In this document: positions 9,560-10,338 of the stretch, one piece after another
Numbering within the stretch: the stretch's first letter is position 1
Layout: each line of letters opens with the position of its first letter
The notes under the pieces: model-generated
Seen by the model: the letters and a program-made list of their open reading frames with translations, nothing else
The model's database searches: none
Told to the model about the DNA's origin: nothing
Source of the DNA: Escherichia phage vB_EcoS-UDS3lw
Length of the DNA: 44,071 nucleotides
Reading direction: 5' to 3' (one strand)
Sequence record: PQ658967.1
Position numbers and translations under genes: made by a program

Positions 9560-9574
9560 TGGCCCCCTTTTCGT
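9547..9574. terminator. bidirectional rho-independent terminator between convergent genes
   Basis: GGGGGCC-GTGAT-GGCCCCC hairpin flanked by A/T runs on both sides. Confidence 0.6.
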
Positions 9575-10338
9575 TAGCGCGGAATACCGCAGATTTCGTT
9601 TAGCGTCTTCACATCCAGCGCCACCGCCGTTGACTTCGGCTTGTCCTGGTATGGAATGAACTGTTCAACTTCAGGCCACGCCTTGATCAGCTTCTTATCT
9701 GTATTGTGCATATCCAGCACGCCGGTAACAGTTAGTTTGAACGCGTCATACTTAGCACGCAACTCACGGCGGGCCTTGTCGTTACGGTCCAGGCGCTTGC
9801 AGAAATCATGACCCGCCGGGTAGTCTATACGACCGCGTGGCTTATATATCGGCAGCGCTTTCCCGTCGTCGTCGACTTCGCACACTGACGCTAACAAAAT
9901 TTCCTCATACCCTGGCACAATATCGCCGAGATCGGGGGATAGTTTATTCATGTATTTATACTCCCAGTATCCGCGATGTACTCGGAATCGGTATCCGTCT
10001 CCGCTCAATGACACGGTACGGACGTTTCCGCCTGCGTTGATTTCGAAAGTGGCGTCGTAAACGCTGCCTATACCATATGGGTTGTCGTCGTCATGTCTAT
10101 ACGTCGCCTTGTTGGTGTATACGCTTACTCCGTACATCTGCGACGGGTCATCGCCGATTGCTTTAATGCGCGAGAGTAGCTCGGCGAAAGTGCGAATGCC
10201 TTCCGGCATACAGTCCAGCGTAATGGCGTACGCCAGATTTCGAGAGTCCATCATGATTGATTTGGCTTCGGTCGCGATTTCGTGGTCGCGCAGGATGTTA
10301 GCCAGAATCTGGTTTTTAATGTCTTTCGTCAGTCTCAT
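9574..10338 (-). CDS. hypothetical protein (254 aa), opposite-strand gene inside head module
   Basis: ATG with CGAGGA SD 9 nt upstream; only leftward gene between 3.3 and 26 kb; own promoter region and terminator. Confidence 0.55.
   Translation of the reverse strand: MRLTKDIKNQILANILRDHEIATEAKSIMMDSRNLAYAITLDCMPEGIRTFAELLSRIKAIGDDPSQMYGVSVYTNKATYRHDDDNPYGIGSVYDATFEINAGGNVRTVSLSGDGYRFRVHRGYWEYKYMNKLSPDLGDIVPGYEEILLASVCEVDDDGKALPIYKPRGRIDYPAGHDFCKRLDRNDKARRELRAKYDAFKLTVTGVLDMHNTDKKLIKAWPEVEQFIPYQDKPKSTAVALDVKTLNEICGIPR

Follow-up and report, generated by a model that had tools for sequence, protein, structure and literature searches.

An Nmad5-family gene as a predicted separate transcription unit in the head module of a Dhillonvirus coliphage, with a possible link to replication and to Tmn

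A leftward gene between the spanin and scaffold genes

The window analyzed here is the whole 44,071-nt sequence of Escherichia phage vB_EcoS-UDS3lw (PQ658967.1). A preliminary description, made from the sequence alone, had pointed to an opposite-strand gene inside the head morphogenesis module. The gene is real: the open reading frame at 9574-10338 on the minus strand starts with ATG at 10338, encodes 254 aa, has a ribosome-binding site, matches a Pfam family over its full length and shows a dN/dS of 0.16. We refer to it as nmad5. An alternative 269-aa form with a TTG start overlaps the promoter, and every orthologue begins with MRLTKD. The features of the locus are as follows.

10368-10397, minus strand: predicted sigma70-like promoter with -35 TTGCAA (10392-10397), an 18-nt spacer and -10 TATATT (10368-10373); promoter scan, 9 of 12 matches
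10361-10384, minus strand: two direct copies of ATTGGTTGCA (TGCAACCAAT on the plus strand), over the spacer and the -10/+1 region; exact copies, likely an operator or promoter element
10346-10350, minus strand: ribosome-binding site GAGGA, 7 nt ahead of the ATG; read from the sequence and kept in relatives
9574-10338, minus strand: nmad5 coding sequence, 254 aa, Nmad5 family; Pfam PF18757, phrog_1965, dN/dS, identity to the SM_A8 gene
9964-10206, minus strand: lineage-specific hypervariable, beta-rich insert with RHDDDNPYGIGSVYDA, codons 45-125; alignment occupancy, entropy, dN/dS and AF2 model
9691-9693, minus strand: codon K216, at which K-to-E gives Tmn escape in the SM_A8 orthologue; alignment
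9549-9575, between the o-spanin gene and nmad5: convergent terminator hairpin (9549-9567) plus T-tract; terminator scan of both strands

The local gene order is portal, Mu-F-like head morphogenesis protein, embedded Rz/Rz1 spanin pair, nmad5 (leftward), scaffold and major capsid. That nmad5 is the sole leftward gene of the head and tail block holds across about 22-26 kb of rightward genes, both in the ORF map and in phage GeorgBuechner (96% identity across a 2-kb locus query), where gp07, the nmad5 orthologue, is the sole leftward gene among gp01-gp26. The next leftward gene after nmad5 is a cor homologue at 26194-26475. Escherichia phages Envy and Sloth share 98.5% identity with the window over the 2 kb around nmad5, and the 2-kb query matched 158 phage records, nearly all of them Dhillonvirus coliphages. 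In SM_A8 and SM_S22 (Yamashita et al., 2025; PMC11846954) nmad5 likewise lies beside the scaffold and capsid genes; a further leftward gene of 104 aa lies upstream of it in SM_A8 and is missing from the window.

Three further observations concern the neighborhood. The i-spanin (9088-9426, plus strand) and embedded o-spanin (9329-9559, plus strand) genes are of Rz/Rz1 type and lie inside the head module, approximately 6 kb away from the holin and endolysin genes (1867-2877); the o-spanin stop codon falls within the terminator hairpin. A conserved 7-bp hairpin, GAGCGGG-TGG-CCTGCTC (10448-10464, plus strand), is located just upstream of the scaffold ribosome-binding site and may be a 5'-UTR structure, since it has no T-tract on either strand. 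A weak rightward promoter candidate, TTGCGA-16-TAATAT, was found at 10405-10432.

The gene product is a full-length Nmad5 protein

The preliminary description could assign no motif to the product. This was mistaken, because residues 1-253 align with positions 1-206 of the 206-position Pfam Nmad5 profile (PF18757) at an E-value of 3.6e-54 (184.4 bits against a cutoff of 27), and an orthologue has already been studied: the protein is 95% identical, without gaps, to Nmad5 of SM_A8, both being 254 aa long. A second match is to phrog_1965, a group of unassigned function. Both the gene and its family have thus been described before, and the finding itself is ordinary; the name does not settle the molecular function. 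The product had further been called Asp/Tyr/Gly-rich, which is true of Asp (9.8%) and Tyr (5.9%), both high for a protein, but not of Gly, whose 6.7% is ordinary. The peptide quoted as an example corresponds to residues 81-96.

The Nmad5 signature residues R2, G104, T213, L217, W221-P222-E223, P229, L246-N247, G251 and P253, which are 84-100% conserved in alignments of 81 and 106 sequences, are all found in the window protein, which has Y and T in place of two further residues frequent among family members, E37 and R40. No match was found in PADLOC, NCBIfam or PDB sequence searches with the single protein or with the 81-sequence profile, and none to structural-protein families in Pfam and PHROGs. 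A homologue in Pseudomonas phage Lydia (L012, 786-1346) is annotated as "5-hmdU DNA kinase domain protein". We considered and rejected 5-hmdU kinase as the identity of Nmad5; the Lydia annotation looks wrong because inspection of the family revealed no Walker A motif and the fold is helical.

A Foldseek search against BFVD returned, at an E-value of 1e-5 or better, only Nmad5-family and unnamed phage proteins (TM 0.4-0.78). The secondary-structure order of the window protein is that of the AF2 model of canonical Nmad5, and no enzyme-like structural relative of the helical-bundle fold was found. From these comparisons of models, Nmad5 appears to be a soluble helical bundle that lacks a conserved catalytic set and has no relative of known structure. 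Residues from both termini (R2, T4 and K/R8 together with T213, K216, L217, W221-P222-E223, P229, L246-N247 and G251) would come together in one conserved patch, as judged by comparison.

Canonical Nmad5 proteins (HK542 gp33 and the Stx phage homologues) share the N- and C-terminal core and the predicted helical-bundle core with the window protein, but they are about 207 aa long and lack much of the Dhillonvirus insert (approximately residues 45-160). In line with this, much of the 45-160 stretch is sparsely filled in the family alignment of 81 sequences. Among 36 orthologues the entropy peak falls on codons 45-125, the AF2 model has beta strands at residues 79-110, and the Asp/Tyr-rich RHDDDNPYG lies in this hypervariable stretch. 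Host sensors may have access to this variable insert.

The window protein carries K216, the residue whose change alters the outcome with Tmn in SM_A8; since the alignment of the two proteins is gap-free, it is the same residue in both. K216 is invariant in the 36 Dhillonvirus orthologues. Across the family the position is K in 59%, Q in 16% and R in 11% of sequences, with no acidic residue among the five commonest.

Conservation and variation of the locus in Dhillonvirus

Purifying selection acts on nmad5, which is a conserved protein-coding gene. Some 92-94% of Dhillonvirus records (∼149 of 158) contain it; Teewinot lacks it and JL1 has only a fragment. Most orthologues are 80-90% identical, and the neighboring scaffold protein is mostly at least 99% identical. 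The dN/dS of 0.16, calculated from eight phages, divides into 0.08 for the core and 0.33 for codons 45-125, compared with 0.06 for the scaffold gene. The GC content of nmad5 is mildly low (51.5 vs. 54.7%, 10th percentile).

The locus gains and loses accessory genes. SM_W22, welsh, SM_A8 and ZCEC11 have extra leftward genes on the upstream side of nmad5, and WF5505 has one on the downstream side (L014 1882-2400, L015 1879-2193, L025 2353-2667, L016 833-1561 and L018 2381-2935); the upstream products are 172, 104 (phrog_24635) or 242 aa in size and the downstream product 184 aa. These extra genes gave no informative family matches except for the WF5505 184-aa protein, which has a sub-threshold match to the DNA polymerase III beta subunit (sliding clamp; 24 bits vs. 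a cutoff of 27). An anti-Tmn role for the extra gene beside nmad5 in relatives was considered and rejected: the anti-Tmn gene is ORF35, elsewhere in the genome.

The preliminary description had likened the placement of nmad5 to that of a moron carrying accessory cargo. Part of this stands: the gene is non-structural, dispensable, toxic to clone and linked to Tmn, it sits at a variable locus, and a promoter and a terminator of its own, as looked for in a moron, are present by prediction (10368-10397, minus strand; hairpin 9549-9567), so that it would form an autonomous unit. Recent cargo is less well supported, given the presence of the gene in ∼92-94% of records, the purifying selection, the mildly low GC and its residence in replication or early operons elsewhere. 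The cor moron (26194-26475) resembles nmad5 in being leftward with a ATTGGTTGCA-type promoter inside a rightward late module; in contrast to cor, nmad5 is near-universal in the genus and would be a displaced replication-module gene, not one of lysogenic conversion or exclusion.

Promoter, terminator and a recurrent 10-mer

Promoter-like sequence upstream of nmad5, already suspected, was found on the minus strand as TTGCAA-18-TATATT. It is kept in GeorgBuechner, SECphi4, WF5505, CHD2B1 and LM40P1, down to a 63%-identical orthologue. The two TGCAACCAAT motifs described at 10361-10384 were also confirmed as exact copies, at 10361-10370 and 10375-10384.

At the other end of the gene, the hairpin 9549-9567 has seven G-C pairs and folds at -20.5 kcal/mol on the plus strand and -17.3 kcal/mol on the minus strand (z about -2.5). 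With the tail UUUUCGUU on the plus strand, it has the canonical form of an intrinsic terminator, here serving the rightward transcript of the spanin genes. The minus-strand tail, GAAUUAUUUUCU, is weaker and would serve as terminator for leftward nmad5. The bidirectional terminator proposed at 9547-9574 is therefore backed on the plus strand and only partly on the minus strand, where both fold and tail are weaker. With its predicted promoter and terminator, nmad5 would be a transcription unit of its own inside the late head module.

The 10-mer ATTGGTTGCA recurs elsewhere in the genome. At one mismatch or fewer there are 18 copies in the window (3.1 ± 1.7 in shuffled sequences), and 16 of these are in the ∼12% of the window that the main genes leave free; the gaps between late head and tail genes contain none. 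The copies overlap the -35, the spacer or the -10/+1 region of predicted sigma70-like promoters, are often paired with 12-31 bp spacing, and occur ahead of the replication operons, the small-gene region, nmad5 and the cor homologue (26194-26475). The sites, which are syntenic in GeorgBuechner, are listed below.

ATTGGTTGCA sites in the window: 40-80, 3103-3135, 10361-10384, 26467-26476, 29362-29383, 31029-31055, 33985-34006, 40710-40719, 43523-43621 and 44020-44029

The nmad5 leader is almost identical to that of the gene at 102-407. At 3097-3135 the 10-mer is reversed in orientation over a rightward promoter, which suggests an operator and not a polymerase contact. Because the nmad5 promoter carries the ATTGGTTGCA element of the non-late promoters, we expect, from promoter motifs alone, that nmad5 would be expressed with early or middle (non-late) genes and not with the head genes. 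A literature search gave no description of the 10-mer, only unrelated papers, and no Dhillonvirus transcriptome paper. The motif offers a handle on temporal regulation in Dhillonvirus.

Some individual loci with the 10-mer are described here in their own right. The region 3066-3236 (plus strand) contains a terminator hairpin, a promoter TTGACT-18-CATACT under two reverse-oriented ATTGGTTGCA copies, and a 26-aa hydrophobic ORF (MARKDIWVLAIWTTAAFIGMVICELI) that may encode a small membrane peptide; this locus differs in GeorgBuechner, which has an annotated 137-aa gene, gp63, between the corresponding genes. The gene at 40907-41236 (plus strand) encodes a 109-aa protein with HTH_23 and Sigma70 region-4 matches (E 2e-7). 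This gene opens the rightward early operon, its own promoter region has ATTGGTTGCA at 40710, and its product might be a candidate regulator that binds the 10-mer. Within the tail module, the minus-strand gene at 26194-26475 encodes a homologue of the superinfection-exclusion protein Cor (phrog_1119, E 1.8e-26), and its promoter has ATTGGTTGCA.

Nmad5 genes in other phages

A profile search of the Nmad5 family gave 518 cluster representatives; among those listed, the proteins are mostly stand-alone and 190-250 aa long. Replication and early operons are frequent settings. At the related locus L002, nmad5 lies inside the replication operon, directly before a homologue (E 1e-9) of window gene 39697-39948; downstream of this homologue follow genes for a DUF2800 nuclease, an Enc34-type SSB, PolA, a SNF2 helicase and Dam. 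The window segment 30044-39948 is the same module minus nmad5, and its replication genes are on the minus strand (module 34453-39508, with PolA at 34453-36744, the Enc34-type SSB at 36970-37773 and the DUF2800 nuclease at 38078-39508). In the L002 and IMG/VR modules nmad5 is thus inside, between SSB and PolA or upstream of DUF2800, whereas in the window a similar replication module has nmad5 approximately 30 kb away with its own promoter. Two candidate counterparts in the window were rejected: the 56-aa gene between SSB and PolA is not an Nmad5 remnant (hhalign probability 0.2%), and no homology was found between the first gene of the window's replication operon and its supposed L002 counterpart.

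The wider survey covered 80 IMG/VR loci, which were picked with one C-terminal peptide pattern and fall into 28 clusters at 75% identity, one sequence cluster accounting for 35 of the 80. Of these loci, 38 contain PolA; 36 contain DUF2800, in most cases at -2, and 31 an Enc34 SSB, in most cases at -1. In 28 of the 80 loci Nmad5 has SSB and PolA immediately on either side, and these 28 represent only three clusters. Among 148 neighboring proteins, no hypermodification enzyme appeared in the 25 Pfam families listed of the 29 found.

In HK542 and many Stx phages the canonical Nmad5 gene is in the pL operon as the first gene after N, in contrast to the opposite-strand gene in the head module of the window. 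A Rac-like prophage has Nmad5 beside kilR. On other contigs the gene adjoins a primase-polymerase; it also occurs close to NADAR and YAcAr genes.

A thymidine hypermodification cluster surrounds the gene only in M6-like and Bordetella phages, a setting from which the family takes its name. In M6, SN1, Lydia and Bordetella phage MW2, nmad5 is flanked by genes for dUMP hydroxymethylase, aGPT-Pplase, kinase, PLP and radical-SAM enzymes, all of which are absent from the window; these Nmad5 proteins match the C-terminal core of the window protein in tblastn at 37-41% identity. In Vibrio phage 1.094.O (L024, 3949-4668), a 239-aa "coil containing protein" encoded after a large TM-helix protein in the tail-gene region has a weak tblastn match to the last 54 residues of Nmad5 (E 1e-4, 39% identity), due either to chance or to a shared C-terminal module.

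Tmn genetics and the possible role of Nmad5

In a study of Tmn-expressing E. coli, escape mutants of SM_A8 and SM_S22 carried K216E or K296E in nmad5 (PMC11846954). Reverting the mutation brought Tmn sensitivity back, and introducing it gave escape. Phages with nmad5 deleted were viable and still blocked by Tmn. The gene could not be cloned and was apparently toxic, and Nmad5 was treated as a DNA modification enzyme (PMC11846954). Missense alleles of nmad5 are already being built into therapeutic phages to evade Tmn, so that knowing the role of the protein is of practical use. The genetics, in which missense changes escape and deletion does not, is unexplained by any model tested.

The reading that we favor, and consider probable, is that nmad5 encodes a non-essential accessory factor tied to replication or recombination, which would act by binding, not by catalysis, and would influence the perception of infection by Tmn. 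Reasoning from sequence comparison, nmad5 would be a unit of its own, insulated from late head transcription, with its transcript ending at the convergent hairpin. The usual home of the gene would be the replication/recombination module; Dhillonvirus would have moved it into the head module with the strand of the replication genes kept. What Nmad5 binds would be either DNA itself or a component of phage replication or recombination; it would not catalyze base modification, and the association would be the route by which it affects the perception of infection by the host Tmn. On this view K216E would be a gain-of-function allele with a changed interface.

The direct trigger of Tmn in phage T2 is RIIB, an early replisome-associated protein (PMC13001434), and a replisome-linked reading of the nmad5 genetics is therefore coherent. 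In both RIIB and Nmad5 single missense changes alter the outcome with Tmn, and both may be replication-linked early proteins. The two have no kinship in sequence or fold, and loss of RIIB function escapes Tmn whereas deletion of nmad5 does not.

A further-reaching proposal, which we put forward tentatively as a possibility, is that Nmad5 is misnamed and is a non-catalytic helical accessory subunit of a widespread phage module of DUF2800 nuclease, Enc34-type SSB and DNA polymerase A. The K216 patch would be the partner interface read by Tmn, parallel to RIIB, and ATTGGTTGCA would define an operator regulon over all non-late Dhillonvirus promoters plus those of nmad5 and cor.

It seems unlikely that Nmad5 instead serves solely in counter-defense or host takeover, inhibiting a host protein and playing no part in replication, with its gene positioned after N as ral is. 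Its place directly behind N in HK542 and Stx phages, its proximity to kilR and to NADAR and YAcAr genes, and the accessory-gene hotspot at its locus would suit an effector, as would a dispensable, toxic gene with a genetic interaction with Tmn that evolves faster than its neighbors and has a hypervariable insert. However, the wild-type gene gives no protection from Tmn, the known anti-Tmn gene is ORF35, no PADLOC or known anti-defense match was found, and a role in replication better accounts for the close and recurrent SSB-Nmad5-PolA linkage.

We judge it rather improbable that Nmad5 modifies DNA bases, as an enzyme or as a cofactor indispensable to one, and that Tmn senses the DNA so modified. 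The family name and the clusters with aGPT-Pplase, hydroxymethylase and kinase genes in M6-like, SN1 and Bordetella phages point this way, and the toxicity on cloning agrees with it. So do the conserved polar residues R/K2, T/S213, E/D223 and N247, which could form an active or ligand-binding site; like the clusters, they argue against the binding reading. But the partner enzymes are absent here: dUMP hydroxymethylase, 5-hmdU DNA kinase and aGPT-Pplase have no Pfam match among the window's non-structural proteins, and its only modification genes are Dam and a homologue of the Dcm-like gene of GeorgBuechner. Each step of the M6 pathway has been reconstituted in vitro with purified enzymes, the set gp51-gp55 being without Nmad5. 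The helical-bundle fold has no enzyme-like relative, and most contexts of the family are free of modification genes. In the BASEL study Dhillonvirus phages were comparatively sensitive to restriction-modification systems relative to deazaguanine-modified phages, which also speaks against an enzyme. Deletion of nmad5 leaves Tmn active, which is hard to square with sensing of an Nmad5-made modification. The label of DNA modification enzyme, taken from the Tmn study, is probably wrong for Dhillonvirus, and Tmn escape would then be read as a change of a protein interface in replication-linked machinery and not as DNA chemistry.

That nmad5 codes for a virion or head-assembly protein and merely happens to lie on the other strand is extremely improbable despite the position between the head morphogenesis/spanin and scaffold/capsid genes and the high conservation in the genus, given the lack of structural matches in Pfam and PHROGs, homologues in early and replication operons, a viable deletion, a promoter of non-late type and a conservation that is not strict, Teewinot being without the gene; in this respect the accessory reading of the preliminary description is borne out.

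Another defense trigger of the genus was compared with Nmad5. The Dhillonvirus protein Ksap1 activates KpAvs2 (PMC11564622); Nmad5 was rejected as this trigger, as Ksap1 is 74 aa long and encoded between methyltransferase and phosphatase genes. The window has a 74-aa ORF at 29839-30063 (minus strand) between the genes for the Dam methyltransferase and a HAD-like phosphatase, and by description alone its length and position fit the published Ksap1.
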